From NCBI GenBank assembly GCA_021789555.1, contig JAJYJK010000001.1, forward strand, positions 76,581-140,580: 64,000 bases of DNA, in the 5' to 3' direction. The stretch comes from Nitrospirota bacterium. GTDB taxonomy: Bacteria; Nitrospirota; Thermodesulfovibrionia; Thermodesulfovibrionales; JdFR-88. The translations under genes and the position numbers were made by a program. This document shows positions 25,448 to 62,450 of this stretch, piece by piece. Below the pieces are notes generated by a model. That model saw nothing but the letters and a program-made list of their open reading frames with translations. It made no database searches and was not told the DNA's origin. Numbering within the stretch: the first letter of the stretch is position 1; each line of letters opens with the position of its first letter.

Positions 25448-26266
25448 TTACTGCAGGAGTTTGAGTACCATCTGCGGCTGCGAGTTGGCCTGCGCCAGGA
25501 CCGAGATGCCGGCCTGCTGCAGGACCATGTCCTTCGTCATCTGCGCGGTCTCCGACGCGAAGTCCGCGTCCACTATCTGCGACCGCGCCGCCGTGGTGTT
25601 CTCTGCGACGTTCTGCAGGTTGGCCACCTGGGTGTCGAGCCTGTTGCTGTCCGCGCCGAGTGTCCCCTGGTCCCCACTGAGCGTGCTCAGTGCGGTGGAG
25701 ACCGTGCTGATGGCGGCCTGCGCGGCGGCCTGCGTCGTGAGGGCTGCAGTGCTCAGGCCCAGGGCGCCGGACGTCACGGCCACGGTGGATATGGCCAGCT
25801 GGTCGTTGGCGGTGTTCTGATAGCCGATCTGGAACGTGATGGAAGAGGAGCTGTTAAGTACGGATGTGCCGTTAAACTTGGTCTGGTTGGCTATGGTGTC
25901 GATTTCGTTCTTGAGCGCCTGGAACTCGGAGTCGATCGATGTGAGGTTGTTGTTGTAAGAGCCGTCAGACGCCTCGACCGCAAGCTCGTTCATCCTCTGG
26001 AGGGCGTCCTGTATCTGGTTCATGGCGCCCATCATGGTCTGGACCATGGAGTTTGCGTTATTTGCGTTGTTTACCGCCTGCCCGAGACCGTTTATCTGCG
26101 CGGTCATGTTGCTGGCGATTGCGTAGCCGGCGGCGTCGTCCTTCGCCGAGTTGATCTTCAGGCCCGATGAGAGCCTCTCCATGGCCGTCTTCAGGTCGTT
26201 TCCGGTCGACCAGAGGTTCCTCTGTGCATCGATAGACGCGATGTTTGTGTTGATAACCAAAGACAT
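25448..26266 (-). CDS. fliC: Flagellin (short, D0/D1-only type, Ser/Thr-rich centre)
   Basis: N-terminal MSLVINTNIASIDAQRNL...LSSGLKINSAKDDAAG and C-terminal ...QAGISVLAQANSQPQMVLKLLQ. It is 272 aa long. Confidence 0.95.
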   Translation of the reverse strand: MSLVINTNIASIDAQRNLWSTGNDLKTAMERLSSGLKINSAKDDAAGYAIASNMTAQINGLGQAVNNANNANSMVQTMMGAMNQIQDALQRMNELAVEASDGSYNNNLTSIDSEFQALKNEIDTIANQTKFNGTSVLNSSSSITFQIGYQNTANDQLAISTVAVTSGALGLSTAALTTQAAAQAAISTVSTALSTLSGDQGTLGADSNRLDTQVANLQNVAENTTAARSQIVDADFASETAQMTKDMVLQQAGISVLAQANSQPQMVLKLLQ

Positions 26267-26310
26267 GTTTTTTTCCTCCGTGAATTTTTGTCTACCGGCA
26301 TCCTTGCCGG
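26267..26310 (-). promoter_or_regulatory. fliC 5' leader with two CsrA-type GGA sites
   Basis: Minus strand has the hairpin CCGGCA-AGGA-UGCCGG (26310-26295), with GGA in the loop. CACGGAGGAAAAAAACAUG carries a second GGA overlapping the SD. Confidence 0.6.
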
Positions 26311-26419
26311 TTTTAAAAGGTCTCTTTTCCGCCCTCCTCCTGATCCCCTGACCGGGCGGGCAGGCGCTTGAACCTTTGCAGTCACCCCTTTCTCGCGCCT
26401 TTTGAAACCCTTTAGTTAT

Positions 26420-26447
26420 TTATCGGAAGGGATAGGGGAAAACTTTA
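26420..26447 (-). promoter_or_regulatory. Sigma-28 (FliA) promoter of fliC
   Basis: Minus strand reads TAAAGTTT-N12-TCCGATAA. Confidence 0.8.
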
Positions 26448-26523: not shown

Positions 26524-29500
26524 TTATGAGACTGCCTCGCCGCCTGCACCACTCGCTACAGCCTGAAAAGAGGCTTTTTCAGCCTGCATGCTTCTCAACA
26601 TATCGGCCAATTCCATTCCGATTTTCTCCAGGGAGTAATGTCTTGCGATAAATTCCCTTGAATTGATAGCTATCCGACGCCAAAGGCCGTCATCGGAATA
26701 CAAGCCCACCACACATTCGGCGAAGCCATCCGCGGAGTCCGCAATCAAGGCGGTTTCACCGGAAATGAGGCCTATTCCTTCAGCTCCAATTGAAGTAGTG
26801 ACTACAGGGACCCCATGCGCCATCGCCTCGCCTATCTTCCCTTTCATGCCGGCGCCGTATCGCAGCGGTGCAATGGAAATTCTTGCCCTTTTCAGATAAG
26901 GTCCCGTTTCCGGCACGTACCCGGCGACGATGATATCCTTGTTTTGAAGGGATGCAATTTCTTTGGGAGGAAGTGGTCCGACAATCGTAAACGTCATGTC
27001 CGGTATCTTCGCCTTGATTTTGGGGAAAATCTCGCCCAGGAAATATTTAACCGCGTCTACATTGGGCAGGTGATTGAAATTCCCGACAAAAATCAACCCG
27101 GAGCGTCCGTCCGATTCTATCGGGCCTTCATCTACGCAATGGATATTGGGAATTACAAAGTGTCTTGCGCCGGGGAGATAATCTCTTATGTGGTCCCAAT
27201 CCCTGTCCGTTATGGTTATGATGGCGTCGGCTTTGCCATAAATATATAATTCATCTTTTTTTGTCGCCTCTGCCTTCTTCAGCAATGCCTTATCGCTGTT
27301 CAATTCGGCCATTCTCTGTTCCCGGACGAAATGGATGTCGACAGTGTCTATCAGGATCTTGGTGCCAGGGGAGCAAGCCCTTATTTCGGGCAGATACTGA
27401 AGCGCGACATCATAGAAAGATAGAAATGCCGTCTCATAAAACCTGTCGGACAAGATCCTTTTTAAATCAATCGACTCGATGCCGGAAATCCCTGATCGGT
27501 CCAATTTTTGCGGGTCCGTGGCATAAACTTCAACTCCCAGCCGTTGCAAGACCCTGATGTAACGCTCCTGATCTCTGCCTTCACGTGCAATATATGTAAT
27601 GTGATAATTCTGTTTTTTCAAAAGACGGATAATCGAAAGAAGCCTCAACGAACCGGACGCCCTGTCAAACCAGGGCAAATATTTATCGATTATTAAAATA
27701 TTCCCCTCGATCTGACGTTCGCTGCCCGGAATCACATTACCGCTGCCGGCAGGATACTGATTTTTCAGCGCGCCGGACCATTTTATGACGAATTTCTCTT
27801 TATTTATGTCTTGAAATTTTTTCATCCCCGCGGACAAGTCCGTTCCACTCGTGGCCCCCTCGTGATGTATTACAAGCGAGAGCGGACAATAGACCACCTT
27901 ATAACCGGCAGACCGCGCGCCGAAACACAAATCGGTATCTTCATAATACCCGGGGGAGTATCGTTCATCAAAATAATTCAACTGCTGCAAAAGGGACCTG
28001 CGAATTAACAGACAGGCCCCGGAGACATAATCAATCTCTTTCACATAATTATAAATCGGCCTGGAGGGATCATCGCCCCTGCCGAAATTCCAGCCGCTCC
28101 CATCATTGAAAATGATGCCCCCGGCTTCCTGTAACCGTCCGTCAGGATACGTGAATTTTGGCCCGGCAATACCTGCTTCAGCGTCGGATTCAATTGTCTC
28201 CACAAGATATTCCAACCACTTTGGCTGCGGCTCCGTATCGTTGTTGAGGAAAACGATATATTTCCCGCCGGCCGCGGCGGCCCCTTGGTTGCATGCCTTC
28301 GTGAAGCCCAGGTTTGCATCATTGGAAATTACATTTACACGCATCTTTTCATTCAGGCCCTTCAGATAATCCTTTGTCCCATCCGTGGAGGCATTGTCGA
28401 TTATGATAATTTCGCAAAGGTCGCAGGGCGTGTTTCTCCTGATTGCCTCGATGCATTTTCTTGTATATTCGACCTTATTAAAAACGGGTATGATAATCGA
28501 GACCACTGGAATTTCCCTCTTTTGGCCTTGTTTGGCCGGTTCCGCTTCAAGCGCCCTTCCAAATAGTGACTCGGCCCTGGCCCCCTGCCCCTTGTCCAAA
28601 CGGAGGCCACCCAGGGCCAAAAGGGCGTCCGCATCGCGCGGCGATACACTCAATATCTCCTCATACGTCTGCATCGCCTCTTTTTCGCGCCCCGACGCCT
28701 GAAGGAGGCGGGCGAGGTTTTTCCTTGCCGCAATGTTTCCCCCGTCTGCGGCCGCCGCATGGCGCAGGCAGAAAAGGGCTTTCAATTTATCGCCCAGGAG
28801 TGCATAATTCATGCCGGTAAGGTCCAACACCCAGGAGTTCCTGGATGAGTTGCCGGACAGGATTTTCGCATGGTCCCGTTTCGCGCTCTCCGGGCCGCTT
28901 GCAAATTTCAGGGCGCGCCCGTTGTGGAAATTCCGCGCCATCGCCTTAATAGTAAGCCTCAGCGACTGGTCCAGGTATCTTCCGGCCGCCTTCGCGTCCG
29001 ACCCTTTAAGCGCCGAGCCCAGGAACAGACAGGCTGCCGCCTCGTCCTCAACGTACTTGCCTTCCGGTGGCGCCTGGCGGACTGCTCCTTCGGCGCCGGT
29101 CGGCAATGCCGCCCTTATTGCATCGAGTGTCGCCTCGAGCCAGGCGCGCCCGAATTTCAGGTCCGGCTCGAGATGATTGCCCTCGCCCCACTCGTTCCAG
29201 GCGTTTATGAATACGATATCATCGTCCAGGTTGCGTTCTTCCAGTGTGTCTATCTCGTGGCCAAGCCACTTGCCGTAAAGCGAAGGCGTGGCCCCCAGAA
29301 AAATAAAGGCATCCGTCGATTTGCGCGCCGTGTTGTCCCATGACGGAGTTACGCAGGGGAACCTCTTGAAAGGAGGTATCTCCTTCCTGCAGACCAGCTC
29401 TACCGCATCCCGGTAGGAGCTGACCCAGTTGCCGTCAGTCAGCAGATTTGCAACCGGCCTCAGGCCGGTCCAGTCCGGCTGAAATTCCACCGAGGCGTCA

Positions 29501-30195
29501 AAGCCGAGGGTTTCAGGGCGTGAAAGTTCGCCCCCGAAGGCCTCCACCCTGCAGAGGTAGAGGCCGGGCAGCCCGAGCCTCTGCGCTTCTTTTCTCCAGA
29601 GAGAAGTCGTCCCAAGCGGATCGGGAAGGTCGCTCACCCTGTAGACGAGCAGAAGCGGTTTCCCATTCACCCTTATGTATCTGTCGTCGCCAAAGACGCC
29701 GCAGAGCCACCGTATATGATTAAGGTCGTCCTCCTTGCTGTAATGCTGGTCAATGAGCACCTCGCTTGAGCGCCCGTCCCAGTTCCTCGTCCATTTCTCA
29801 TTGGCCCAGCAGAGGCAGAAGGGGAAATCGGGTTTGCCTGAGGCGAGCACCTCCTGCAAGGGACGCCCAAGCGGTCTCTTCCCGTTAAACCAGTAATGGT
29901 AATAGCAGAAACCGTAAACGCCGTACTGCCTGGCAAGCTCCGCCTGGGCCTCCCTGGTCTCGGCCAGGCGAAGGTCGTAAAATCCCAGGTCGGCGGGTAT
30001 ATGCGGCTGATAATGTCCGGGGAAAAGGGCTTTCGCCTTTGTAACATTCGTCCATTCGGTGAAACCCTTCCCCCAGGCGCTGTCGTTTTCCGGTATGGGA
30101 TGATACTGCGGAAGATAAAAAGCTATCAGTTTGGGATGACGCCTTTGCTTGTCCATGCCTGTCCTTTCAGCTGCGGATTCGCCCGTCTTTTTCAT
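26524..30195 (-). CDS. Multi-domain glycosyltransferase (1223 aa): WbsX/GH99-like - TPR - GT2 - GT-B (GT4-like)
   Basis: aa ~20-370 FYLPQYHPIPENDSAWGKGFTEWTNV...CWANEKWTRNWDG (WbsX-like). TPR-like helices ~aa 470-545. GT2 from aa ~563 (VVSIIIPVFNK...IIIDNASTDGT...DTDLC). C-terminal GT-B (GAGMKGKIGEAMAHGVPVVTTSIGAEGI). Confidence 0.8.
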   Translation of the reverse strand: MKKTGESAAERTGMDKQRRHPKLIAFYLPQYHPIPENDSAWGKGFTEWTNVTKAKALFPGHYQPHIPADLGFYDLRLAETREAQAELARQYGVYGFCYYHYWFNGKRPLGRPLQEVLASGKPDFPFCLCWANEKWTRNWDGRSSEVLIDQHYSKEDDLNHIRWLCGVFGDDRYIRVNGKPLLLVYRVSDLPDPLGTTSLWRKEAQRLGLPGLYLCRVEAFGGELSRPETLGFDASVEFQPDWTGLRPVANLLTDGNWVSSYRDAVELVCRKEIPPFKRFPCVTPSWDNTARKSTDAFIFLGATPSLYGKWLGHEIDTLEERNLDDDIVFINAWNEWGEGNHLEPDLKFGRAWLEATLDAIRAALPTGAEGAVRQAPPEGKYVEDEAAACLFLGSALKGSDAKAAGRYLDQSLRLTIKAMARNFHNGRALKFASGPESAKRDHAKILSGNSSRNSWVLDLTGMNYALLGDKLKALFCLRHAAAADGGNIAARKNLARLLQASGREKEAMQTYEEILSVSPRDADALLALGGLRLDKGQGARAESLFGRALEAEPAKQGQKREIPVVSIIIPVFNKVEYTRKCIEAIRRNTPCDLCEIIIIDNASTDGTKDYLKGLNEKMRVNVISNDANLGFTKACNQGAAAAGGKYIVFLNNDTEPQPKWLEYLVETIESDAEAGIAGPKFTYPDGRLQEAGGIIFNDGSGWNFGRGDDPSRPIYNYVKEIDYVSGACLLIRRSLLQQLNYFDERYSPGYYEDTDLCFGARSAGYKVVYCPLSLVIHHEGATSGTDLSAGMKKFQDINKEKFVIKWSGALKNQYPAGSGNVIPGSERQIEGNILIIDKYLPWFDRASGSLRLLSIIRLLKKQNYHITYIAREGRDQERYIRVLQRLGVEVYATDPQKLDRSGISGIESIDLKRILSDRFYETAFLSFYDVALQYLPEIRACSPGTKILIDTVDIHFVREQRMAELNSDKALLKKAEATKKDELYIYGKADAIITITDRDWDHIRDYLPGARHFVIPNIHCVDEGPIESDGRSGLIFVGNFNHLPNVDAVKYFLGEIFPKIKAKIPDMTFTIVGPLPPKEIASLQNKDIIVAGYVPETGPYLKRARISIAPLRYGAGMKGKIGEAMAHGVPVVTTSIGAEGIGLISGETALIADSADGFAECVVGLYSDDGLWRRIAINSREFIARHYSLEKIGMELADMLRSMQAEKASFQAVASGAGGEAVS

Positions 30196-30244
30196 ACGGC
30201 CCGCCTTTTTTCAAACAGCCTGCCTTTTTTTTAAACGGATTCCA

Positions 30245-33200
30245 TCAGACCTTCAAACAACTTTCATTTTTATTTTTATTTTCAAGCCGCTTCCTCACCG
30301 CCTCCAGCGCCCGACCGAGCGGGATTTCGGAGGCCGGCCCCTTTTCATTGAACAGGATTTCGGCCTTATCCCCTTCCGCGTAACAGCCGGTATAAGGCAT
30401 GTATCGCTCAAAGATGCGGTATCTGCCAAGCAGTATGACCCCCGGCGTCATAGTCGCGTTCGCCAGGTGGGCGGGCCCGCTGTCTACACCTGCGAAGAGG
30501 GCCGCCCGCCTGATGACCTCCGCCGTCTCAAGAAGCGATAATTTATTGCAGAGGTTTATGCCCGCGCCCTCCGGCAAAACGGGCCTTGCGCCGACTTCGA
30601 CAACCGGAATCCGTAATTCTTTTGCCATAAATGAGGAAAGCTGTGCCCATTTGGAGGCCGGCCAGTCCTTGGCCGCCTCGTTGGACTCGCAATGAAACAC
30701 GGCGTACCGTGCCGGAAGCGGCAATTGTCGTACCCGCCGGACTGCGGAATCCGTGATGTATACCCTGGGCTGCCTGTCCCCGACGGTAACGCCCGCGCCA
30801 AGTGAAAAGGCCTCAAGCAGGCTGCCGAAGGAAAAATAGTTTTCGACATTTATCTCGGTCCTGCCCCTTTTTTTCCTGAGCGGGACCCCGCAGACAGGGC
30901 ATATCCTGCCGTTTACATGAAGATCGAAGACCTCGTCGAAGATGCCGCTTTCGGCAATCAAAATCCACTCCGTAAGGCAGTCGACAACGAGCGTTTCATC
31001 GATGTTTGGATTGCTGTCGATCAATTCCCTGTAAGGTTCTCTTACCGCCCAGGTAATCCTGGCCTCGGGATATCTCTCTTTCAGGCTGCGCGATACGGGT
31101 TCACAGGCCACTATGTCGCCGAAATGCTCAGTAAGCCCGACAAGGACACTCTTTACAAAAGGAGAACCGGCGGTGTTCCCGGCGCTTCCGGCCGCCATGC
31201 CCGGCATCGGACTGCCGGCGGCTTCTGCATCATGGCCCAAATTCGGCTTGCTGCTTTTGCGCGCAAGGCCGGATCCCTTTTTGCGGCCTAAAACAATAAT
31301 CTCGTCCGGATTGAATCCACGGCACAGCTCGAACGCTTCCAGACCGGATGCCAGGAACAACCTTTTGATGCTGTCCCGTGTAAACAGAAAGAGATGCTCA
31401 TCGGGCTTGAACTGCATCCATTCCCTGCCCTCCCCGCTCCAACACGGGGTCTGGAATATGCATACGCCGTCGTCCTTGAGTCCGGCCGCGACCGCGGAAA
31501 GTCCTTCCACGGGAGAAGAGAAGTGCTCGATGACGTCAAATCCGCAAATAACGTCGAACTTGTCGTACGGCAAATTTACATCCGGAAACAGGCCGCCTAT
31601 GATGAAAGGCAGATTAAAGCGCTCGCGGGCGAAACTGCATGTCCGTTCGTCGACTTCCACGCCCACGACGTGCGCGGCCCCGCGCTCGCGGCAGTAATGC
31701 AGGAACCCGCCGTGGGCGCAACCGATTTCAAGCAGATGCTCCGGCCTGGGATTATATCTCGTGAGGATCTGATGCCAAAATGGAATTCGGTTCTTGAAGT
31801 CCATTTCCGCGCGCTCTTCTATCGGCGGGTAACCAAAATCCTTCGCTACATACTCGTGCCAGTAACCATCAAATGAATAGAACTCCCTCAGCCTTTCCTT
31901 TTCGGGAAATTCTTTTACCACATAAGTTCCGCATTCGACGCACCGCGAGTACGACGGATTCACTGCTTCCACGAGCCCGCCCCCGCACCAGCATTTCCGA
32001 CCGGGTAAAACTTCCGGGACTGACCCTTTTTCATTTGCGGGCATCTTGCCATCCCCTGATTTCGCAATCAGGAAAGAACATTCCGTCAGCATAACCTGAA
32101 CATCCGGGTTTAGTTTTTCTCCCCTGAGACCTTCGAGGACCCGGCGGGCGTAATCGGTCCTGCCGCTTTCAATCAGCTTTCTCGCGTAAACCGCCAGCGC
32201 GGCGGGCATATCCATGAACTGGCCGGCCCGTCTCGCAAGCTCCATGCCGCTTTCCTTCCTGCCGGCGCAAAGATGGGCCAGGGCCAGCGTGGAGAGGACC
32301 ATGGGGTGCGTGTTTTTGCTTTTTCCATTTTCAAGCAGTGCAATCGCGGCCCCGGCATCCCCTAGAAATACCTGGCAGCGGGCGTACAGATAGCTCGTCT
32401 CCAGGCAGTCAAGCGGCGACTTGAAGGCCTTCTCGATGACCTCTTTGGCCTCGCCGTAACGTGCCAGCGCGCACAGGGAGTCGGCGACCCCCAGGTGCGC
32501 CTCCAGGTGGCCGGGCCTGATGCGGGCGGCCTTCTTCCAGTTGTCAAGTGCGTCTTCAAACCTGCCCAGTTCCCCGGCCTGAACGGCCAGTTCCATGGCG
32601 GACTTGAAATCGTCCCCGCCTTTTTCAGAGAGTTTCGCCCTCCCCATTTCAAAATAGTCCCTGCCTTTTTCCTGCACCTTGTCCGCGAAGAGTTTCCCAT
32701 AATGGTGGATGGGTACGCCGCAGGGCGCGATTTTTATGCCCGCCTCCGCCAGGGAGTCCTCCACCACCTCGTGGACCGGGTTTTTGAAACGTATCCTCTC
32801 ATCGTTCGCAAAGAGCCTTACCTTAATGCTCGGCAGCCAGCCGGTGCCCGCCTGTTCCGGGTAAGCGCCGTCGTTGGCCCTCCAGCCCCAGATTGAGGGC
32901 GAGAGTATGTAATTTCTCGTAGTGAAGCTGTAGGCCGTCTTTTTCGTTTTCGCCCCGTCGATAAGCGCCCTGAGTTGCTTGCGGCTCGACGGGGATATGA
33001 CCTCGTCCGCGTCCATCACGAGTATCCAGTCGCCCGTGGCGCGGGATATGGAGAAATTCCTCGCCCCGGAGAAATTGAAATCCCCGGTCCACTCGAAATC
33101 GAAGACCTTTGCCCCGAGCGCCCTGGCAATTTCCTTCGTGCGGTCCCGGGAGCCCGTGTCCACGACTATCAGCTCGTCCGCAAGCGGCCTGAGATTCAGC

Positions 33201-35932
33201 AGCGCGCGCACGATGTTTTTTCCCTCGTTTTTCACTATCATGCAAATGGAAAGCGTCTCTCTATCTTTATTTTTGCCCGGACCGGACGCAAGTGTTCCCC
33301 CCGCCGGGCCGATAAGCTCCCTGATTTGAAGCGCTACGGAAAGCGCGGCGTCGTCAACCCCGAACGCCAAAAACGTCTCTTCAAGAACATTCAGCGCCTC
33401 CCCGAGCTGGTTGCACTTTAAGTGAAACTCCGCCAGGATGTGCCTTAAACGCCTTTTTAAAGGATAAAAGACGATGGCGTCCCTGACCGCCCTTATGCCC
33501 CTTTCAAATATGCCCTTATCGTCTTCAAGTGAAAGCTCCATGAGCGCGCCATAATAATTTGTGATTATGTCTTCCGTTGCCGGGGAAAGGGTGAAAGCCC
33601 TTTCAAAGAGCGCAAACGCCTCCTGTCTTTTGCCCTCCGCCCACCTTATCGCCCCGAGATTGGCATAGGCCTCTGCGTAACCGCTGTCGGCCTTTATGGC
33701 CTCTGCGAAAAACGACTCCGCGCCTTCGGGCATCCCCTTTTTGAATTGGATGACGCCCATCAGGTTTAGAGAGCTTGCCCGCCTATGGAGGTCAAGCGCC
33801 CTCCGGGCAAGCCTGTCCGCTTCTTCGACTTCCCCGAGGCCGTCCTTGCAGTATCCCCTTAACTCAAGCTCCATCGAATCCGGATTTGGCGGCGACTGGG
33901 CCGGGGACTGGCCCCCTGCGGGACTGGTCTCCCTGGGCATATTGGAGAGCAGCTCAAGGGCGTGCCTGAACCGGCCGTTATCGATGAGCATCCGGGCGAA
34001 CCGGTAATAGAGCCCCTTTACGAACGGCATATCACCAAGGGGGGAATTCTTGATGGTCTCGACAAATATCTTCACGGCCTTTTCCAGATCGCCCCTCTGG
34101 TCCGCCTCCACCGCGCCTTCAAAGAGTTTTAGCGCACGGAGTTTTTTTGCTTCGGGGCCAAGGGGGTCGATGGCCCGCCATTTTTCCTCGAAGGCCATTT
34201 TATCGGCCGCGTCATCTTCGGGCGTTTTCGATTTCGTCGTAGCCGGCCCTTCCCTGTAGAGAAGCGTATCGGCCGCCACGAAACACTTCGAGCCGTCGAG
34301 CACGGCGCGCTGCATGAGGTCCAGTATGGCAAAAGGCCGTGAACTGAAGACCTCGTCAAAAAAGCCCGTCTTTTCAAATAACGCGCGGGACAACAGAATG
34401 CAAAAATCATCGAGCCTCGGCACGGGAAAACGGCAGTGCATGTTTTTTTCCCTGAAGGCGCGCGCGTACTGCTGCCAGGAGGCGGTCCCGGTCTTTCCAT
34501 TGCCGCCTTCAGTGGTCTCCGGGATGGAGGGCAAGATGGCCTTTTGGGGTCCTTCCGCCCGGTTTGATATTGGACCAATTATAGGGGGTCCAACTATGGG
34601 GGGGCCGATTATAGGGGGCCCCGTTGTCGCGGAGCCGGCAAGGTCTCCGCCGGGTGCGGATTTCTCAACATTTTTCATGCATCCGAGCATCCCGGAGAGC
34701 CATCCTTCGCTTACTTCCACGCCGCCGGCCAGAAGGACTATATACTGGCCGGATGCCGCCCTGATTCCTTCATTGCAGAGGGCGGCAAAACAGGGGCCGG
34801 AGGTCTCAATAAACTTGTATCCCGGGTAGTCGGCCGCATGCTTTTTAAGCCATTTCGCGGCGCCATCCGCATAGTCGAAGCCGGTTAAAATTGTCTCATG
34901 GGGCTCGGGAGTATATTTGTCCAGGAGCCGGAGGCATCTCTGGATTTCCTTGAGCCGGTTTTCCTGTTTATTTCCGGGGGCCGCAAGCACAATCGAGACC
35001 ATACTGCCGCCCCGGGCATTCATGCGCGCCTGAGGGGACTGGTCCCCCCGGGCCCAGAAGGAGCCTGCCCAGGACAGTCCGGCGCTGAGATACCCGGCCT
35101 CGTCCTTTTTTGAGAATATATCGAATGCGGACTTTTCAAGCGCCGCCCTTTTTTCATCGTCTTCCACCAGTTTCCTGCACTCCGCTGCGATATTCCCATA
35201 GGGGACCGCGGCCAAGGCGTCACGGAGCCAGGGCGAAATCTCGGTCTTCTCATCACATTCGGCGACTACGGCCTTCCGGTTGGCAAGCAGATACGACACC
35301 CTGACCAGCTCGAAGATGCTCGATTCATAGAAATGGAGGTTTAGCACCACCTTCGCCCTGGCAATATAGGCATCGCGCGCGGCGCCATATACGTCAAACA
35401 GCGACTCCACGCTGAGACCTTCCAGGCTGAGGGCCTCCAGTATCTTTTTTCGCCGCTCGTTTACGGAGCCGTAGAACAGGACGTCGATGTCCTGCCGGGC
35501 GGCTGGACTGATGCGCGCCATCTCCGGCCTGAAACCTATCGGCACATGCAATACGGCGTCTCCATATCCCATCGCCCCGAGGGCCTCAATATTTCGCAGG
35601 CTGTAGTCCCAGACGGGAAAACGGCCGAGCAACGGCTTTATCCGCCCCCACATGGAAGACGGGCCGGCCTGCTCCAGGTTGTATATCACGGTTTTTTCCG
35701 GCAGCCGGGCCGCCTGCTCCGCAGAAAGCAGATGCGCCCCGAAGACAATATTCAGCGGACCAGTCCGCCCATCCTGAATAAAATTGTTCGTCCCAATTGC
35801 CGCCTCGTACCCGAGCGCCTGCAGTCCGTAAAAAACGGTCTCCGCCACCTCCTGGAAGGCCGCGCTGTGCGGATAACCTGGCGGCTGAACAATCGTAACG
35901 GCTGCCTTGCCCTTGACTGAATCTTTTCTCAA
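30245..35932 (-). CDS. Giant multi-domain glycan-assembly protein (1895 aa): CgeB-like GT - GT2 - TPR - GT2 - TPR - Zn-ribbon/SAM methyltransferase - GT9 (heptosyltransferase-like)
   Basis: TTG 35932 follows GGGAGGAG. GT2a starts ~aa 310 (MVSIVLAAPG). GT2b starts ~aa 893 (LSICMIVKNEGKN...VVDTGSRDRT...LVMDADE). The MTase sits at ~aa 1397 (LLEIGCAHGGF) after CWCGG...CVECG. GT9 starts ~aa 1594 (VLVGLTEHFGDIVACEP...GVDSGPAHLANA). TPR-like helical repeats lie between the catalytic domains. Confidence 0.75.
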   Translation of the reverse strand: MRKDSVKGKAAVTIVQPPGYPHSAAFQEVAETVFYGLQALGYEAAIGTNNFIQDGRTGPLNIVFGAHLLSAEQAARLPEKTVIYNLEQAGPSSMWGRIKPLLGRFPVWDYSLRNIEALGAMGYGDAVLHVPIGFRPEMARISPAARQDIDVLFYGSVNERRKKILEALSLEGLSVESLFDVYGAARDAYIARAKVVLNLHFYESSIFELVRVSYLLANRKAVVAECDEKTEISPWLRDALAAVPYGNIAAECRKLVEDDEKRAALEKSAFDIFSKKDEAGYLSAGLSWAGSFWARGDQSPQARMNARGGSMVSIVLAAPGNKQENRLKEIQRCLRLLDKYTPEPHETILTGFDYADGAAKWLKKHAADYPGYKFIETSGPCFAALCNEGIRAASGQYIVLLAGGVEVSEGWLSGMLGCMKNVEKSAPGGDLAGSATTGPPIIGPPIVGPPIIGPISNRAEGPQKAILPSIPETTEGGNGKTGTASWQQYARAFREKNMHCRFPVPRLDDFCILLSRALFEKTGFFDEVFSSRPFAILDLMQRAVLDGSKCFVAADTLLYREGPATTKSKTPEDDAADKMAFEEKWRAIDPLGPEAKKLRALKLFEGAVEADQRGDLEKAVKIFVETIKNSPLGDMPFVKGLYYRFARMLIDNGRFRHALELLSNMPRETSPAGGQSPAQSPPNPDSMELELRGYCKDGLGEVEEADRLARRALDLHRRASSLNLMGVIQFKKGMPEGAESFFAEAIKADSGYAEAYANLGAIRWAEGKRQEAFALFERAFTLSPATEDIITNYYGALMELSLEDDKGIFERGIRAVRDAIVFYPLKRRLRHILAEFHLKCNQLGEALNVLEETFLAFGVDDAALSVALQIRELIGPAGGTLASGPGKNKDRETLSICMIVKNEGKNIVRALLNLRPLADELIVVDTGSRDRTKEIARALGAKVFDFEWTGDFNFSGARNFSISRATGDWILVMDADEVISPSSRKQLRALIDGAKTKKTAYSFTTRNYILSPSIWGWRANDGAYPEQAGTGWLPSIKVRLFANDERIRFKNPVHEVVEDSLAEAGIKIAPCGVPIHHYGKLFADKVQEKGRDYFEMGRAKLSEKGGDDFKSAMELAVQAGELGRFEDALDNWKKAARIRPGHLEAHLGVADSLCALARYGEAKEVIEKAFKSPLDCLETSYLYARCQVFLGDAGAAIALLENGKSKNTHPMVLSTLALAHLCAGRKESGMELARRAGQFMDMPAALAVYARKLIESGRTDYARRVLEGLRGEKLNPDVQVMLTECSFLIAKSGDGKMPANEKGSVPEVLPGRKCWCGGGLVEAVNPSYSRCVECGTYVVKEFPEKERLREFYSFDGYWHEYVAKDFGYPPIEERAEMDFKNRIPFWHQILTRYNPRPEHLLEIGCAHGGFLHYCRERGAAHVVGVEVDERTCSFARERFNLPFIIGGLFPDVNLPYDKFDVICGFDVIEHFSSPVEGLSAVAAGLKDDGVCIFQTPCWSGEGREWMQFKPDEHLFLFTRDSIKRLFLASGLEAFELCRGFNPDEIIVLGRKKGSGLARKSSKPNLGHDAEAAGSPMPGMAAGSAGNTAGSPFVKSVLVGLTEHFGDIVACEPVSRSLKERYPEARITWAVREPYRELIDSNPNIDETLVVDCLTEWILIAESGIFDEVFDLHVNGRICPVCGVPLRKKRGRTEINVENYFSFGSLLEAFSLGAGVTVGDRQPRVYITDSAVRRVRQLPLPARYAVFHCESNEAAKDWPASKWAQLSSFMAKELRIPVVEVGARPVLPEGAGINLCNKLSLLETAEVIRRAALFAGVDSGPAHLANATMTPGVILLGRYRIFERYMPYTGCYAEGDKAEILFNEKGPASEIPLGRALEAVRKRLENKNKNESCLKV

Positions 35933-36006
35933 GATTTTTCTCCTCCCGGTTCAAACCGCCTCGGATGCCAAATATCCGCCAAACACCTCAATTGGCCTTG
36001 AAAAAA

Positions 36007-36021
36007 GCAATTATTATGCCA
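36007..36021 (-). promoter_or_regulatory. Sigma-54 promoter upstream of the 1895-aa gene
   Basis: Minus strand reads TTGGCAT-AATAA-TTGCT (TGGCAT-N5-TTGC), ~63 nt upstream of the TTG start. Confidence 0.65.
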
Positions 36022-36206: not shown

Positions 36207-36596
36207 TTAAAGCCTGTCGGGCAGAAGCTGCATGCCCCTCATGAGGGCGGCGTTAAGCAGGAGCGGGGCCCTCGTGTTGACGATGACATTGCCGGCTTCC
36301 ACCCGCACTATAAGCAGCACCGCGAGGTCCTCCTTTTTTTCGAGCCCCAAAAACCGTATGGCCGCATCGTCCACCGGGGCCTCGTAGCCCGGCGAAACGC
36401 TCCCGGGGAGGCTGACGATGAAGGCGACGGCCGGGTCGTCCACCGACTGGAGCCATTTCAGCCCGGTGTCCTTGTAGTCCATGATGATATAGCGTTTCAG
36501 GGCGGAGAAGCCGGGTATGCCCTCCGGGAAGTCTATTACCTTTGAATCATCCATCTCGATGGGGCCGAAGCGGGAGGTTTCAAACTTTATCTTCAT
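36207..36596 (-). CDS. fliW: Flagellar assembly factor FliW (CsrA antagonist)
   Basis: MKIKFETSRFGPIEMDDSKVIDFPEGIPGFS...WLQSVDDPAVAFIV is FliW-typical. ATG 36596 lies inside the csrA 3' end. Confidence 0.9.
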   Translation of the reverse strand: MKIKFETSRFGPIEMDDSKVIDFPEGIPGFSALKRYIIMDYKDTGLKWLQSVDDPAVAFIVSLPGSVSPGYEAPVDDAAIRFLGLEKKEDLAVLLIVRVEAGNVIVNTRAPLLLNAALMRGMQLLPDRL

Positions 36597-36825
36597 GTTT
36601 TTGCCCGAGCGCCTCCTTGATCTTGCCGAACTCGTCAACCGAGAGGTCCGAGGACATCATGTTTTCCCTGAGTATCTTTTCATAGACCTCCGCCCGGTAT
36701 ATCCTTACGCCGGGAGGCGCCTCAATCCCAAGCCGTACCTGCCCTCCCTTGATCTCTACGACCGTAACGGTGATGTCACCGCCTATCCTGATGGCCTCCT
36801 TCGACTTCCTTGTCAGTGCCAGCAT
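36580..36825 (-). CDS. csrA: Carbon storage regulator CsrA (long, FliW-partnered type, 81 aa)
   Basis: MLALTRKSKEAIRIGGDITVTVVEIKGGQVRLGIEAPPGVRIYRAEV plus a ~25-aa C-terminal extension. Confidence 0.9.
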   Translation of the reverse strand: MLALTRKSKEAIRIGGDITVTVVEIKGGQVRLGIEAPPGVRIYRAEVYEKILRENMMSSDLSVDEFGKIKEALGQKHEDKV

Positions 36826-45492: not shown

Positions 45493-45505
45493 GACCGGTT
45501 ATATT

Positions 45506-45520
45506 GCAATTTCAGTGCCA
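45506..45520 (-). promoter_or_regulatory. Sigma-54 promoter of the flgFGAHIJ operon
   Basis: Minus strand reads CTGGCAC-TGAAA-TTGCA, an exact TGGCAC-N5-TTGC. The -12 C at 45506 lies only 14 nt upstream of the flgF ATG at 45492. Confidence 0.75.
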
Positions 45521-49576: not shown

Positions 49577-50776
49577 CTAGAAGCCCAGCCCGGAAAGCAT
49601 CTGGTCCACCCCCGCCTGAGACACCTTCTCCGGGGCCTGAGCGAGGGAGGGACTTTGTTCTATCTTTACGCCAAAGTTGGCTATGAGCCCCATGAGTTCC
49701 TTTTCCACCTCGCCCACAAGCCCTATCACCTTCTTCAGCGCCTGCCCGGTCAGGTCCTGGAAAGACTGCGTCGTAAGGACCTCGGTGAGGTCGTCCTCGA
49801 GCCTGTTCTTGAAACTCTTCAGATAAGCGACCGTCTCCTCCGGCTCCTTTATCTGCCTTATATGAGAGGAGAGCTCGTCGATGCTCAGGATGTATTTTTC
49901 GACGAAGGCCATCGTCTTGTTGGCCGCCTCCTCCGTCTTGTCGATCACGTACTTCAGACGGTCGACTGCGTGGGGCATCTCCGTAGTGGCCATGTCCTTC
50001 AGTTTCGGGTCGATTGCGTCGTTGAAATTCTTGAGGGAGTCGTGGAGTTTCCGGGTCACCTTGCCCACCTCGTTGTACAGCTCGCCCCGGCCTTTCTTGA
50101 TGATCCTCTGAATGACGGCCTCGGCCTTTTCGTAATCGCGCGCGTCCAGGGAGTCCAGGAATTCCATCACCTCCGTCATGATCCCGTCGAGGTCGCCCGA
50201 TAATTTTTTCCCGAAGAACTCCTTGGCGTCATGGACTTCCTTCAACTTCATCTCCCCCGCCATGGTCTGAACGCTCCTCGTGACCTCGACGCTGCCGTCG
50301 TTGCCGATCTGCTTTACCTCAAGGGCTTCATCCTCGAAGAGGGCCACGTCCTCGAACGGGATAAGTTTCTTGGGGTCCAGGAGGACCAGCAGCTTGTCTT
50401 TTATCTTCGCCACGCCCTTTATCTGCTCCATCTTCTCGGAGAAGAACCTCTCGGGGTGCTCGACGGCGCCGCCGTCAATCTCGACGACGCCCGTGATGCC
50501 GTCCACCAGGACGCCGAAAGTGATCTTGCCGCTTGAAATGACGATGATCTTGCCGCCGGAGGCCCCGCCGTTGGAGCCGTTCGAGCCGTTCATGTTAAGG
50601 AGGCTTTTAAGGTTCACTATCACTATGATGCTGCCCCTGAGATTCGTAACGCCCTCTATGTAAGCCGGCGCCTGCGGCATCCGCGTGATCACCGGGGCGT
50701 TTAGTATCTCACGGACCTTGAGGATGGGTATGGTGTATTCCATCGACCCGAGTTTAAACCCTATGTATTGCTCCAT
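49577..50776 (-). CDS. CheW-CheZ fusion protein (N-terminal CheW-like domain, C-terminal CheZ phosphatase)
   Basis: The N-terminus EYTIPILKVREIL...AYIEGVTNLRGSIIVIVNLK...FGVLVDGITGVVEI is CheW-like. The C-terminus has the CheZ active-site motif SFQDLTGQALKKV and the CheY-P-binding tail AGVDQMLSGLGF (compare E. coli QDFQDLTGQVIKR and QVDDLLDSLGF). Confidence 0.8.
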   Translation of the reverse strand: MEQYIGFKLGSMEYTIPILKVREILNAPVITRMPQAPAYIEGVTNLRGSIIVIVNLKSLLNMNGSNGSNGGASGGKIIVISSGKITFGVLVDGITGVVEIDGGAVEHPERFFSEKMEQIKGVAKIKDKLLVLLDPKKLIPFEDVALFEDEALEVKQIGNDGSVEVTRSVQTMAGEMKLKEVHDAKEFFGKKLSGDLDGIMTEVMEFLDSLDARDYEKAEAVIQRIIKKGRGELYNEVGKVTRKLHDSLKNFNDAIDPKLKDMATTEMPHAVDRLKYVIDKTEEAANKTMAFVEKYILSIDELSSHIRQIKEPEETVAYLKSFKNRLEDDLTEVLTTQSFQDLTGQALKKVIGLVGEVEKELMGLIANFGVKIEQSPSLAQAPEKVSQAGVDQMLSGLGF

Positions 50777-53515: not shown

Positions 53516-54331
53516 TCACGTTGTCCTCTGGTAAACAAGGGTATTATTGAATATCAGGGGTTTGAAGGCCCTGGTCACGTCGTGCAGGCTCTCGGACTTC
53601 CCTATGAAGAGATACCCCCCCGGCCTGAGGCTGTCATACAGGCCGGAGACGACCTTCCTCTTTGACCGGGCGTCAAAATAGATGAGCACGTTGCGGCAGA
53701 AGATGACGTCCATGCCGGTGAGGAATTTCCTGCCGTCCGCGAGGTTTATATTCATGAACCTGACGGAGTTTCTTATCTCCGGGTCAAGCTCATAGAGCTG
53801 TCCGCCGTTTTTGAAGTATTTCGCCAGATAGCAGCCGGGCGTGTTCCTGATGGAGTAGGAATTGTAAAGTCCCCTTCTGGCGGCCTCAAGCGTCTGGTTG
53901 CTGATGTCCGAGGCGTAGATGCTGAGCCTGGCCGCGGGGTGTTTCTCCCTGAGCACGATGGCCATGGTGTAAGGCTCCTCGCCGGTTGAGCACGCACTGG
54001 ACCAGAACGAAACGCCCTTCATGCCGGAACGCCCCAGCAGGTCCGGCAGCACATGCTCCACGAGCGCCGCGAAATGCTCCGGCTCCCTGAAAAAAGAGGT
54101 CTCATTAGTGGTGATTGAGTCAAAAAGACAGTTGAGCTCCTCGGCGTTCCGGCCGGAGGACAGCAGTTCAAGGTACTGGTCGAACCCGGCCAGTCCCCTG
54201 GCCCCAAGCCTCGGGGAGAGTTTCTTTTCGACCAGGTATTTCTTGGTGTCGGGTATGAAGATGCCGCTTTCCTCATATATAATGTCCCTCAGCCGCCTGA
54301 AGGTATCCTCTCGAAGGACAGTCTCCGCCAC
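53516..54331 (-). CDS. cheR: Chemotaxis methyltransferase CheR
   Basis: TNETSFFREPEHF, WSSACSTGEEPYT and FCRNVLIYFD. Confidence 0.9.
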   Translation of the reverse strand: MAETVLREDTFRRLRDIIYEESGIFIPDTKKYLVEKKLSPRLGARGLAGFDQYLELLSSGRNAEELNCLFDSITTNETSFFREPEHFAALVEHVLPDLLGRSGMKGVSFWSSACSTGEEPYTMAIVLREKHPAARLSIYASDISNQTLEAARRGLYNSYSIRNTPGCYLAKYFKNGGQLYELDPEIRNSVRFMNINLADGRKFLTGMDVIFCRNVLIYFDARSKRKVVSGLYDSLRPGGYLFIGKSESLHDVTRAFKPLIFNNTLVYQRTT

Positions 54332-55560
54332 TAGTCAATTTTCTCCCCGTCCGGCCGGATGCTCTGCCCTCCTTCAGGCCCGGATTTTCCGCCTTTGGCC
54401 CCGGCGGCCTCGCGTATCTGCCTGAGCGTCTTGACGCTGGCGTTTCTTATGTCATGGATATTGCTGTCCTGCATCTGCTCTACCAGCGGGGCAGCTTCGG
54501 CGCAGCCCATCTCTCCAAGCAGCCCCAGGAGGAAGGCAAGCCCCCTGAATTTCAGACGGGCATCCCTTAAAAGACCGATAAGCGCGGGGGAGCAGTCGAA
54601 TCTCGCCAGAGCGCTCCTGATCTCCTCAAGCTTGCCTTCGCAGTCCGGGACGGATGGGTCCAGCGAGCCGGCCGCGTCGATGATGTGGAAAAGCGCCCTT
54701 TCCTCCCTGAACGCGGAGAGCCCCATGAGGGCCAGCATCTTGTCGTCCCAGTCCCCGCCTGTAAAGAGTTCGAGCAGCAGCTCCCTGATCCCCTTCACCT
54801 CCGGGATAACGCCCGCCGAAAGCAGGCTTTTGACGGTCAGCATCCTTTCCAGATCAGATATCCCCTCCCACTCGAGGTGCTCATTCAGGGCGGCAATGGC
54901 CCTGGCGGTCTCGATCGAGGCCAGACAGGATATGGCCCCGCTCCTGATGACCTCGCTGGGGCTCATCAGCAACTCGGCCACGGCCTCAACCGACCCGTCG
55001 TCCTTTATCGCGGCGAGGGCCTCGAGGACCGCAAACGAGACCCACTCGGTGTCCCTGAGGGCCTCGACAAGCGCCGGCACGGCCCCGGACATGCGGAGCG
55101 CGCCGATGGCCTTTGCGGCCGAAACCCGGACGTTCGGGTTCGGGTCCCGCTGCAGCAGTTCCTGGAGCAGCTCCGGCGCCGGGCACTCGCCGATTTCGCA
55201 TATCAGGTCCAGGGCGAATTTCCGTATATCGTCGTCCTTGTCCCTCATAAGAGGGCCAAGCATCGGAACAACCACCTTGCCCAGCTCCTGGAGGATTATG
55301 ACGGCCATGTTCCTTGTGACGACATCGTCCCTCAGAAGCGGCAGCACCATGTAGGCGGCGGCCTCCCCTCCGATAGCGATCAGGGAGCGCATGGCCGCGT
55401 CCTGCACGCCCTGGTTTCCGTCCTTCAGGGCCTTTATGAGCGGCAGCACGGCCCTCTCGTCGCCCATCGAGAGCTGTTCGGCGGCCTCGCGCCTTTTGGA
55501 AGAATTGGCCGCCCCCAGGTCCCACACCAGGGCCCTTATCTTCTGGCTTGTCAAGTTCAT
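54331..55560 (-). CDS. HEAT-repeat (PBS-lyase-type) protein in the che operon
   Basis: Repeated R..A...L..IG...A...L...L.D motifs, e.g. KRREAAEQLSMGDERAVLPLIKALKDGNQGVQDAAMRSLIAIG. Confidence 0.75.
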   Translation of the reverse strand: MNLTSQKIRALVWDLGAANSSKRREAAEQLSMGDERAVLPLIKALKDGNQGVQDAAMRSLIAIGGEAAAYMVLPLLRDDVVTRNMAVIILQELGKVVVPMLGPLMRDKDDDIRKFALDLICEIGECPAPELLQELLQRDPNPNVRVSAAKAIGALRMSGAVPALVEALRDTEWVSFAVLEALAAIKDDGSVEAVAELLMSPSEVIRSGAISCLASIETARAIAALNEHLEWEGISDLERMLTVKSLLSAGVIPEVKGIRELLLELFTGGDWDDKMLALMGLSAFREERALFHIIDAAGSLDPSVPDCEGKLEEIRSALARFDCSPALIGLLRDARLKFRGLAFLLGLLGEMGCAEAAPLVEQMQDSNIHDIRNASVKTLRQIREAAGAKGGKSGPEGGQSIRPDGEKID

Positions 55561-55588: not shown

Positions 55589-56353
55589 TTACTTATCGGC
55601 AACCCGGGCCGGCTTCTTTAAGGCCCCGGTGTCTCCGAAACGGCTTTTCAATCTCATGAGCGCCTGTTTGTGGAGCTGGGAGACCCTTCCTTCGGTGAGG
55701 TCCAGCACCCGCGCGATCTCCTTCATCGTAAGCTCGTCCCAGTAATAGAGCGAAAGTATCATCCTCTCCTTCTTCGGGAGCCGGTCTATGGCGGCCGCAA
55801 TCGCCTCCTTGAGCCTGTTTTCCTCCAGTTCCTCAAACGGCCCCTTGGCGTCTTTGTCGCCTATGCACTCCGAGACGTCCATCTCCCCCTCGTCCGCGTT
55901 TATCCTGAAATCCTCGAACCTGAGCATTATCGAGCCGCTGGCGTCCTGGAGTATCTGGCGGTACTCCTGCACGCTTATGTCCATCGCCTGGGCGATCTCC
56001 TCCTCCTCGGGCATGCGGCAGAGCTCCTTTTCGAGCCTGGCGTGGACCTTCCTGACGGCGTCGATCTTCTTCTTCATCGACTTGGGGACCCAGTCATATG
56101 CCCTGATCTCGTCGAGCATGGCCCCCTTGATGCGGAATTCGACGAACGTGCGGAGTTTTGCCTTCTGCTCGTCATAGCGCCCGAGGGCGTCCAGAAGACC
56201 CATCGTGCCCACGCTTATCAGGTCCTCCTCGGTGAGGTGCCCCGGGAGCCTCCAGGCAAGCCTGTAGGCCGTATATTTGATAAACGGCAGGAACTCCTTT
56301 ACCAGCGACTCCTTCTGCTGATCATTTATGGTCTTGTAACTTATCATCTGCAC
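55589..56353 (-). CDS. fliA: Flagellar sigma factor FliA (sigma-28)
   Basis: Regions 2-4 are present: LISVGTMGLLDALGRYD, RIKGAMLDEIR and the region 4.2 HTH LTMKEIARVLDLTEGRVSQLH. Confidence 0.9.
   Translation of the reverse strand: MQMISYKTINDQQKESLVKEFLPFIKYTAYRLAWRLPGHLTEEDLISVGTMGLLDALGRYDEQKAKLRTFVEFRIKGAMLDEIRAYDWVPKSMKKKIDAVRKVHARLEKELCRMPEEEEIAQAMDISVQEYRQILQDASGSIMLRFEDFRINADEGEMDVSECIGDKDAKGPFEELEENRLKEAIAAAIDRLPKKERMILSLYYWDELTMKEIARVLDLTEGRVSQLHKQALMRLKSRFGDTGALKKPARVADK
55593..55620 (-). promoter_or_regulatory. Sigma-28 promoter embedded in the fliA 3' end, reading into the HEAT-cheR-cheY-cheA operon
   Basis: Minus strand reads TAAAGAAG-N12-GCCGATAA. GCCGATAAGTAA also encodes the last fliA codons (A-D-K-stop). 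The geometry is identical to the fliC and flgM promoters. Confidence 0.6.
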
Positions 56354-62170: not shown

Positions 62171-62440
62171 TCACCTTATGTATGAGGGTATGTTGTATAT
62201 CATCTGGTACGTGAATCCGACCAGGACCTTGGTAAGCCATGGCGCCAACACGAAGATGCACACAAAGACGGCTATTATCTTGGGCACGAACGTAAGCGTG
62301 AACTCCTGTATCTGGGTGACGGTCTGGAAGAGGCCTATCAAAAGGCCGGTGACCAGGCTCACGAGGAGCGCCGGGCCGGAGGCGAGCAGCACGACCCTGA
62401 ACGTCTGCGCGGCTATCTGCCTTATCGTGTCCTGGTTCAT
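62171..62440 (-). CDS. fliQ: Flagellar export apparatus protein FliQ
   Basis: An 89-aa 2-TM protein with LIGLFQTVTQIQEFTLTFVPK. Confidence 0.9.
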   Translation of the reverse strand: MNQDTIRQIAAQTFRVVLLASGPALLVSLVTGLLIGLFQTVTQIQEFTLTFVPKIIAVFVCIFVLAPWLTKVLVGFTYQMIYNIPSYIR

Positions 62441-62450
62441 TCAAGACCCC

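Follow-up and report, generated by a model that had tools for sequence, protein, structure and literature searches.

In Clostridioides difficile, the three glycosyltransferases GT1-GT3 (CDR20291_0241-0243, type B) sequentially build an O-linked oligosaccharide on flagellin in the cytoplasm from genes next to fliC, and the second of them is fused to a methyltransferase (MT) domain that has been proposed to methylate the sugars it adds (PMC5207246). The Listeria monocytogenes flagellin glycosyltransferase GmaR transfers N-acetylglucosamine (GlcNAc) to flagellin, has a glycosyltransferase (GT) domain followed by tetratricopeptide repeats (TPRs) that are proposed to dock flagellin, and is bifunctional, acting both as a flagellin O-GlcNAc transferase and as an anti-repressor (PMC9638930). 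Caulobacter crescentus FlmG binds flagellins through an N-terminal TPR region and carries a C-terminal GT-B domain (PMC7591256), Pseudomonas aeruginosa FgtA (PA1091) is a flagellin-locus fusion of a GT2-family glycosyltransferase with a phosphotransferase (PMC11833859), and fusions of GT41 and MT domains have been predicted in enterobacterial flagellin glycosylation islands, where they are known from genome analysis only (De Maayer & Cowan 2016; PMC4875605). The locus analyzed here belongs to a Nitrospirota bacterium known as a metagenome-assembled genome (MAG; GCA_021789555.1) and lies in a 64-kb stretch of contig JAJYJK010000001.1, hereafter the window. Two very large co-oriented genes, gene 1 and gene 2, occupy the interval between csrA-fliW and fliC, and sequence comparison suggests that their products together O-glycosylate the flagellin encoded directly downstream, as a soluble system that works in the cytoplasm and needs no carrier, a reading to which we assign a probability of about 0.72.

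Gene 1 runs from an N-terminal GT-B domain through a first GT2 domain (GT2a), a first TPR array (TPR1), a second GT2 domain (GT2b), a second TPR array (TPR2) and a Zn-ribbon/MT region to a GT9 domain, and gene 2 combines a WbsX barrel, a third TPR array, GT2 and a GT4-type GT-B domain (Table 1). An initial annotation, made from the sequence alone, had given both open reading frames (ORFs) at these positions and lengths and the domains in this order, and Pfam bore the order out. Both ORFs are intact in at least five other assemblies, annotated as Nitrospiraceae MAGs, in exact or near-exact copies, and since these copies recur in several independent assemblies the long frames are not an assembly artefact. 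No membrane-like segment was found in either protein, and a cytoplasmic location is predicted for both. Flagellin is taken as the target because four lines of evidence converge on it: homology of a gene 1 module to GmaR, synteny accompanied by module swapping, relatives in flagellar loci and a statistical association with flagellin genes. On these lines and the predicted location, the initial reading of the locus as a flagellin glycosylation machine holds in outline, with its details unproven and its uniqueness overstated.

The GmaR-like core of gene 1 and its association with flagellin genes

The best PDB match of the whole gene 1 protein is the GT domain of GmaR (E 4e-25). A phmmer search of the PDB with GT2b alone likewise placed GmaR (22ao) at the top (E 1.2e-27), covering query residues 6-209 of a 231-residue segment (~200 residues), followed by the peptide S-glycosyltransferase SunS and a related GT2 chain, and the GT2b motifs VVDTGSRDRT and VMDADEV align with iivDTGStDst and aiDADe of GmaR. 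Like GmaR, gene 1 thus has a homologous GT-A domain of about 200 residues with the DTGS and DxD motifs intact, a TPR array (TPR2) directly C-terminal to it, and a position in a flagellar locus next to flagellin. Unlike GmaR, the GT2b-TPR2 unit forms part of an 1895-aa protein that contains five further modules, has a methyltransferase after it, and is accompanied by no detectable anti-repressor domain in gene 1. The linker/anti-repressor region of GmaR yielded no PDB match, the only GmaR sequence returned being one of 204 residues that aligns to GT2b alone, and MogR is absent from the annotated window ORFs. Judged by sequence, GT2b-TPR2 is of the GmaR type in every testable respect except the Listeria-specific anti-repressor part, and GT2b is proposed to be the flagellin-directed initiating transferase.

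Association with flagellin genes extends well beyond the Nitrospirota. Outside this phylum the GT2b domain occurs in 27 of 31 flagellin-bearing loci compared with 4 of 44 others (Fisher p 4e-12), and its stand-alone homologues next to fliC are GT2+TPR proteins of 470-690 aa. In Acidobacteriota, Acidimicrobiia and Chromatiales the gene order is fliC, such a GT2+TPR gene, and then a GT-B gene of the gene 1 N-terminal type, which is often fused to a methyltransferase; this gene pair lies within 0.1-5 kb of fliC and not beside hook or junction genes. These arrangements suggest that a GmaR-like GT2-TPR protein and a compact GT-B enzyme form a recurrent flagellin-linked pair across phyla, and because both occur there as separate flagellin-adjacent genes, gene 1 can be regarded as a fusion of this conserved flagellin-flanking pair.

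The same distribution bears on whether other proteins are modified. The targets could be other or additional type III-exported flagellar proteins (FlgL, FlgK, FliD or the hook protein), or an unrelated cytoplasmic protein recognized by the TPRs, and not mainly FliC: genes 1 and 2 sit between flgKL and fliC-fliD, three separate TPR arrays could recognize more than one client, and FlgL here also has flagellin N and C domains. The core pair of other phyla, however, adjoins fliC and not hook or junction genes, and the characterized relatives (GmaR, C. difficile GT1-GT3 and FgtA) all act on flagellin, such that a main target other than FliC is considered unlikely.

The N-terminal partner of the pair belongs to a large family (1931 clusters at E<=1e-30) that is poorly captured by existing models. 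Residues 1-300 alone gave no Pfam match even at E<=1, and a PDB profile search with an alignment of the family also found none. The AlphaFold2 (AF2) model of these residues has a predicted local distance difference test (pLDDT) score of 93.6, and its top Foldseek matches are PimA, MshA, SdgB and PglA (E about 1e-7). In an alignment of the window segment with 27 homologous segments, 10 of the 28 sequences match PF13524 (CgeB-like), so that the CgeB-like label of the initial annotation is valid at the level of the family. Because the AF2 model with Foldseek and the Pfam scan of family members agree, the domain is assigned a compact GT-B fold, as modeled, with GT4 enzymes nearest to it. A profile of the domain, scanned against species-representative genomes, detected 576 or more loci. 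Of the best 80, 37 have flagellar genes no more than 10 kb away; 54 of the 80 are 15 kb or longer, and 27 of these have a flagellin within 10 kb.

Between these two enzymes of the core lies GT2a, whose Pfam GT2 match, over residues ~325-590, is weak (E 1e-6). Compared with motif-intact homologues, DNGS has become GFDYA, LNNDV/T has become LAGGVEV and EDDD has become AILD, and because its canonical motifs are gone GT2a is probably catalytically inactive, making it a candidate pseudo-glycosyltransferase scaffold. The other seven enzyme-type modules of the two proteins keep their signature motifs. The ‘eight catalytic-type domains’ of the initial annotation therefore hold as folds, with plausible activity in about seven of the eight. 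A 15-nt tandem repeat at 34575-34618 of the window encodes a GPPIIGPPIVGPPIIGP insertion in GT2a; at this position the alignment with the orthologues is gapped, their length differs and the full three-unit repeat is missing from them.

Module exchange in Nitrospirota and a probable portable glycan-building set

The order fliW, giant GT genes and 272-aa fliC is kept in five related Nitrospirota loci (L001, L002, L003, L006 and L010), and two more (L008 and L009) hold as much of the arrangement as their contigs span; the fused architecture was thus found beside flagellins in other genomes, where the initial annotation had proposed to look for it. Across these relatives the core from the N-terminal domain to TPR2 is kept at 51-82% identity and the accessory modules shift. 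Gene 2 has no GT2 module in L001 and L006, where a separate GT2 gene comes after it, and in L002 and L010 the gene 1 orthologue ends in a fused module that is 66-68% identical to the GT-B module of window gene 2. In place of gene 2, L002 (16577-20107; the same gene at 6833-10363 in L003) encodes a 1176-aa protein with Methyltransf_24, GT2, radical S-adenosylmethionine (SAM) and SPASM domains, an unusual fusion that points to radical chemistry acting either on the glycan of flagellin or directly on the protein. The second island gene of L010 (16365-19445) encodes 1027 aa with a GT2 match.

More distant relatives point the same way in part. Two core homologues (P0034 and P0030, Syntrophus-like, 32-37% identity) abut flagellin, flaF and flbT genes, and one of these two loci also has dTDP-sugar and methyltransferase genes. 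The distant relatives L004 and L088 carry dTDP-sugar or NTP-transferase genes. A gene 2 relative with 44% identity over its full length (P0100) lies in a flagellar locus beside a GT2-TPR protein and a sugar nucleotidyltransferase. The initial annotation had held that orthologues situated consistently in O-antigen or capsule loci would tell against flagellin; this pattern was not seen for gene 1, and the picture is mixed for gene 2, with one of the two relatives checked lying in a flagellar locus.

The accessory modules themselves are for the most part readily assigned. Gene 1 has a Methyltransf_23 match (E 3e-22) with weak PDB matches to the sugar C-methyltransferase TcaB9, and its GT9 domain matches PF01075 (E 5e-14), with TIGR02193 and TIGR02201 matches below the cut-off. 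A model in which GT9 is a protein heptosyltransferase of the BAHT type (TibC) was dropped, the PDB having returned only a generic GT9 entry (3tov, E 1e-5). In gene 2, the AF2 model of the WbsX domain (pLDDT 79.8) has GH99 endo-alpha-mannosidases as its top Foldseek matches (E 1e-9); as modeled, the domain is a GH99-like TIM barrel, neither GT-A nor GT-B, that may be either a transferase or a hydrolase, and a literature search on WbsX/PF14307 returned nothing useful on function. The GT2 domain of gene 2 adjoins a GT-B domain in every homologue examined.

Two proteins or gene blocks found elsewhere indicate how these modules travel. P0031, a 1905-aa metagenomic protein, carries the N-terminal-type GT-B, GT2, GT-B, MT, GT9 and WbsX modules at 48-62% identity to those of the window, in a different order and with the GT2a-TPR-GT2b-TPR part missing. 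L087 (7793-15523) has the accessory block as MT+TPR followed by GT9-WbsX-GT2-GT-B-GT2, with the gene boundary placed differently and identities of 45-57% for the five modules common with the window and 28-36% for the extra C-terminal GT2. Since six modules (N-terminal-type GT-B, GT2, GT4, MT, GT9 and the GH99-like barrel) travel together in this way, they are probably a portable set that builds one glycan, and in the window lineage the set is joined to the flagellin-directed core. L087 has no flagellar genes within 10 kb, and in that locus the set may therefore act on a different target.

Taken at its fullest, gene 1 would be a ‘Rosetta-stone’ fusion that exposes an uncharacterized but widespread core, a GmaR-like GT2-TPR initiator and a compact GT-B enzyme lacking a Pfam model, which in Acidobacteriota, Acidimicrobiia and Gammaproteobacteria are encoded by individual genes flanking flagellin and in Nitrospirota are joined to the portable six-module set. 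The product would be a carrier-free, substrate-docked assembly line that processively builds a complex methylated oligosaccharide on flagellin, and strains would vary the glycan by exchanging cassettes. This extended version is offered tentatively, the odds being somewhat against its holding in full.

Several points weigh against flagellin glycosylation. The organism is an uncultured MAG, and the modification of its flagellin is a prediction. Nucleotide-sugar genes were found neither between fliW and fliC nor elsewhere among the annotated window ORFs, as the initial annotation had stated, and its picture of a whole pathway condensed into two polypeptides stands as a hypothesis, with donor-sugar synthesis encoded elsewhere. 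About half of the N-terminal-domain loci are without flagellar genes nearby, the second gene 2 relative (P0095) has no flagellar neighbours, and proteins of the WbsX+GT2+GT4 type represented by gene 2 abound (at least 7993 matches) and are mostly annotated at source as lipopolysaccharide (LPS) or cell-wall biosynthesis. GT9 enzymes classically act on LPS cores. We infer that GT2b and not the N-terminal GT-B is the initiator, a choice to be counted on this side as well, and the Ser/Thr richness of the fliC center is by itself weak evidence for glycosylation.

Some of these points favor a surface polysaccharide. ABC-transporter-dependent polysaccharide pathways use multi-domain glycosyltransferases (WbdA/WbbB type) and a terminating methyltransferase (WbdD type), and genes 1 and 2 might polymerize a lipid-linked or free polysaccharide (O-antigen-, extracellular-polysaccharide- or sheath-like) that is merely co-regulated with flagella. 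The abundance and usual LPS or cell-wall labeling of the gene 2 architecture, the resemblance of GT9 to LPS heptosyltransferases, and the non-flagellar setting of P0095 and of about half of the N-terminal-domain loci would fit this explanation. Set against it, exporters of the Wzx/Wzy or Wzm/Wzt type and a priming phosphoglycosyltransferase are absent from the annotated ORFs of the window, where the sole ABC transporter is an uptake system dependent on a substrate-binding protein and located beside molybdenum-cofactor genes. Further, the position between fliW and fliC is kept across genomes, gene 1 has a GmaR-like GT2-TPR unit embedded in it, and GT2b is strongly associated with flagellin loci. 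A surface polysaccharide is accordingly judged improbable, and flagellin remains the preferred target.

Giant fusions are not confined to the Nitrospirota. Two gammaproteobacterial MAGs (L019 and L030) encode TPR-GT41x2-GT2-TPR-Nt-MT proteins of 2444-2468 aa next to flagellins, Nt being the N-terminal-type GT-B, and further large fusions (2181 and 2225 aa) are found next to flagellins in other uncultured bacteria. At L019 (1572-8903), L030 (5918-13321) and a third gammaproteobacterial locus, L020 (7895-11455), proteins of 1187-2468 aa are encoded within about 130-240 bp of tandem flagellin genes; L020 and L030 also have flaF and flbT alongside, and the L020 protein is without GT2 and has one GT41 region.

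Genomic setting, expression and proposed mechanism

On the minus strand the order is flgM-flgN-flgK-flgL-csrA-fliW, gene 1, gene 2, and fliC-flaG-fliD-fliS, followed by response regulators. The coordinates of the features are collected in Table 1.

Table 1. Features of the flagellin-adjacent glycosyltransferase locus, in positions of the 64-kb window
Feature	Position	Strand	Description
Gene 1	30245-35932	-	1895 aa; TTG start after GGAGGAG Shine-Dalgarno; seven-module soluble protein
N-terminal compact GT-B domain	35033-35932	-	Gene 1 residues 1-300; large mobile domain family
GT2a	34073-35002	-	Gene 1 residues about 311-620; degenerate GT-A domain with GPPII(V) repeat insertion
TPR array 1	33293-34075	-	Gene 1 residues 620-880; PDB matches to the TPR region of O-GlcNAc transferase (OGT)
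GT2b	32648-33280	-	Gene 1 residues 885-1095; GmaR-like GT-A domain, DTGS and DAD motifs intact
TPR array 2	32063-32635	-	Gene 1 residues 1100-1290; TPR_19 and ANAPC3 matches; directly after GT2b
Four-Cys Zn-ribbon-like motif and class I SAM methyltransferase	31313-32005	-	CWC...CVEC, gene 1 residues 1314-1336; LLEIGCAHGGF; motif plus Methyltransf_23 together 1314-1540
GT9 (heptosyltransferase-like) GT-B domain	30248-31195	-	Gene 1 residues 1580-1895; GVDSGPAHLANA motif
Gene 2	26524-30195	-	1223 aa; WbsX/GH99-like barrel, TPR, GT2, GT4-type GT-B
WbsX domain	29128-30129	-	Gene 2 residues 23-356; GH99-like (beta/alpha)8 barrel; PF14307 E 5e-134
TPR array 3	28531-28998	-	Gene 2 residues about 400-555
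Canonical GT2 domain	27826-28509	-	Gene 2 residues 563-790; DNAS, LNNDT and EDTD motifs; PF00535 E 1e-31
GT4-type GT-B domain (Glyco_trans_1_4)	26581-27798	-	Gene 2 residues 800-1205
csrA	36580-36825	-	Upstream of gene 1; flagellin translation control
fliW	36207 to ~36596	-	Directly upstream of gene 1; flagellin translation control
Sigma-54-type promoter	36006-36021	-	TGGCATAATAATTGCT; TGGCAT-N5-TTGCT, about 75 nt upstream of gene 1 start
Sigma-28-like fliC promoter	26420-26447	-	TAAAGTTT-N12-TCCGATAA
fliC	25448-26266	-	272-aa minimal flagellin with Ser/Thr-rich center; proposed substrate

The sigma-54-type motif ahead of gene 1, which the initial annotation had reported, matches the window twice compared with 0.12 matches expected, and is conserved in L001, L002, L006, L008 and L010, where it lies 80-110 nt ahead of the gene 1 orthologue. 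The second perfect match, TGGCACTGAAATTGCA at 45505-45520 (minus strand), lies just upstream of the flgF-flgG operon, and a similar motif occurs at the matching position in L001, L002, L006 and L010. The promoter of fliC, found with a variable-gap pattern, is sigma-28-like, and fliA lies in the window at 55589-56353. Another sigma-28-like motif, TAAAGAAG...GCCGATAA at 55593-55620 (minus strand), overlaps the 3' end of fliA, and the gene downstream of it, within the che cluster, encodes a 409-aa HEAT-repeat protein (54331-55560). The stretch from gene 2 to fliC showed no intrinsic terminator, so that transcription from the sigma-54 promoter may read through into fliC. In other sigma-54-dependent flagellar systems, sigma-54 promoters drive the middle (rod and hook) genes; if sigma-54 drives the middle class here, synthesis of the enzymes would precede the release of flagellin production by sigma-28 and CsrA/FliW.

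The proposed substrate agrees with its earlier description as a minimal flagellin with a Ser/Thr-rich center, residues 131-200 being 33% Ser+Thr and variable between lineages. Downstream of the sigma-28-like promoter, the fliC leader (26267-26420, minus strand) folds more stably than shuffled controls (z = -3.5) and is rich in GGA motifs, which occur in a hairpin (CAGGGGAUCAGGAGGAGG) as well as at the Shine-Dalgarno sequence (CACGGAGGA), features that fit control of flagellin translation by the CsrA/FliW partner switch.

A structured leader with GGA motifs, and the position of gene 1 directly after csrA-fliW, could also point to a partly or mainly regulatory protein in which GT2a and the TPRs sequester FliW, CsrA, FliS or FlgM and glycosylation is secondary. 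The bifunctionality of GmaR (PMC9638930) and the conservation of GT2a despite its lost catalytic motifs are compatible with such a role. However, the PDB search found no match to the linker or anti-repressor region of GmaR, the seven other modules retain enzyme motifs, and the swapping of modules between strains better suits diversification of a glycan than maintenance of a regulatory interface, leaving a partly or mainly regulatory role very unlikely.

If genes 1 and 2 do glycosylate flagellin, GT2b-TPR2 would bind unfolded or chaperone-free flagellin via its TPRs and, ahead of export by the type III system, place the first sugar on serines or threonines in the exposed central region (~residues 130-200). 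Docking by TPRs is suggested by analogy with the two-hybrid data for FlmG (PMC7591256) and the proposal made for GmaR (PMC9638930). The N-terminal GT-B, GT9, the GT2+GT4 pair and perhaps the WbsX barrel would then extend the glycan stepwise directly on the protein, and the methyltransferase would cap or modify it; both the order of these steps and the activity given to each module are inferred. The degenerate GT2a-TPR1 unit may serve as a scaffold or binding module. Fusion would keep the steps together on one substrate-docked complex, and exchange of accessory modules between strains would diversify the glycan.

The remainder of the window is predominantly a flagellar/chemotaxis regulon with flhB, flhA, flhF, flhG, fliA, cheA, cheW-cheZ, cheB, cheR and motAB, together with molybdenum/tungsten-cofactor and formate-dehydrogenase-type genes and major facilitator superfamily transporters. 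Genes 1 and 2 are separated by a 49-nt spacer, which is filled by about 2.7 copies of a 19-nt unit (GTTTGAAAAAAGGCGGGCC-like, minus strand; 30181-30230). The repeat extends into the first codons of gene 2; it may be a scar left by recombination where modules join, or it may serve in translational coupling. A 399-aa protein (49577-50776, minus strand) joins an N-terminal CheW to a C-terminal CheZ phosphatase domain in a seemingly unusual fusion, and a 372-aa ORF without a Pfam match (62178-63296, plus strand), flanked by fliR and fliN on the opposite strand, is either a gene specific to this lineage or a spurious reading frame.

Comparison with known flagellin glycosylation systems

Beyond GmaR, the closest parallel is C. 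difficile GT1-GT3, with which the locus shares GT2-family enzymes beside fliC and one glycosyltransferase fused to a methyltransferase. In C. difficile there are three separate proteins, none with more than two domains or with reported TPR arrays, whereas here about eight enzyme-type modules and three TPR arrays are contained in two polypeptides. PA1091, compared by its description, is similar in fusing a GT2 domain to a second glycan-modifying activity at a flagellin locus, but it has two activities only and its second domain differs from those of gene 1; a literature search on Fgt1/FgtA/FlmQ with TPRs returned nothing useful.

FlmG offers an analogous design, a flagellin-binding TPR region tethered to a soluble glycosyltransferase. 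By domain order the proteins are unlike, FlmG having TPR then GT-B in about 600 aa and the orders here being TPR2-MT-GT9 and TPR-GT2-GT-B, and a FlmG-type system was rejected on domain content, no TPR then GT-B unit being present. FlmG also transfers pseudaminic acid, and neither pseudaminic nor legionaminic acid biosynthesis genes, or any other nonulosonic-acid genes, are among the annotated ORFs of the window. A Maf-type system was likewise rejected, with no MAF_flag10/DUF115 Pfam match in either protein.

The enterobacterial islands share multi-domain GT/MT proteins with this locus, and many environmental GT41+MT proteins carry the N-terminal GT-B domain of gene 1, but gene 1 and gene 2 are without a GT41 domain. 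More generally, as in flagellin glycosylation islands, GT genes lie among flagellar genes, adjacent to flagellin, and vary between related strains; unlike the islands with sugar-nucleotide genes, none is annotated in the window. The WbdA/WbbB-WbdD systems also place several soluble GT modules and a methyltransferase in one or two polypeptides, a likeness that does not discriminate, and they differ in that no Wzm/Wzt exporter or initiating polyprenyl-phosphate glycosyltransferase is annotated here.

A search of the literature for flagellin glycosylation in Nitrospirota turned up no paper, and we know of none for Acidobacteriota or Acidimicrobiia, although no search was aimed at these two groups. 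The analysis contributes the recognition that a core pair is conserved, that six modules form a portable set and that GT2a is degenerate. The N-terminal GT-B family of gene 1, previously unnamed, comprises about 1900 clusters at E<=1e-30 and lacks a reliable Pfam model. The fused Nitrospirota proteins hint at which modules act together. A possible use of such proteins is as a compact, soluble, lipid-carrier-independent toolkit for protein O-glycoengineering.

The initial annotation knew of no described flagellin-modification enzyme with this domain load, which overstates the case if taken as uniqueness, since GT/TPR/MT fusions of 2100-2470 aa adjoin flagellins in other uncultured bacteria. Because smaller fusions have been published and equally large ones adjoin flagellins elsewhere, the system is best placed as an extreme fusion of a known flagellin-glycosylation type. 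Current concepts are not overturned by it; the known flagellin glycosylation islands are extended to an extreme of domain fusion.

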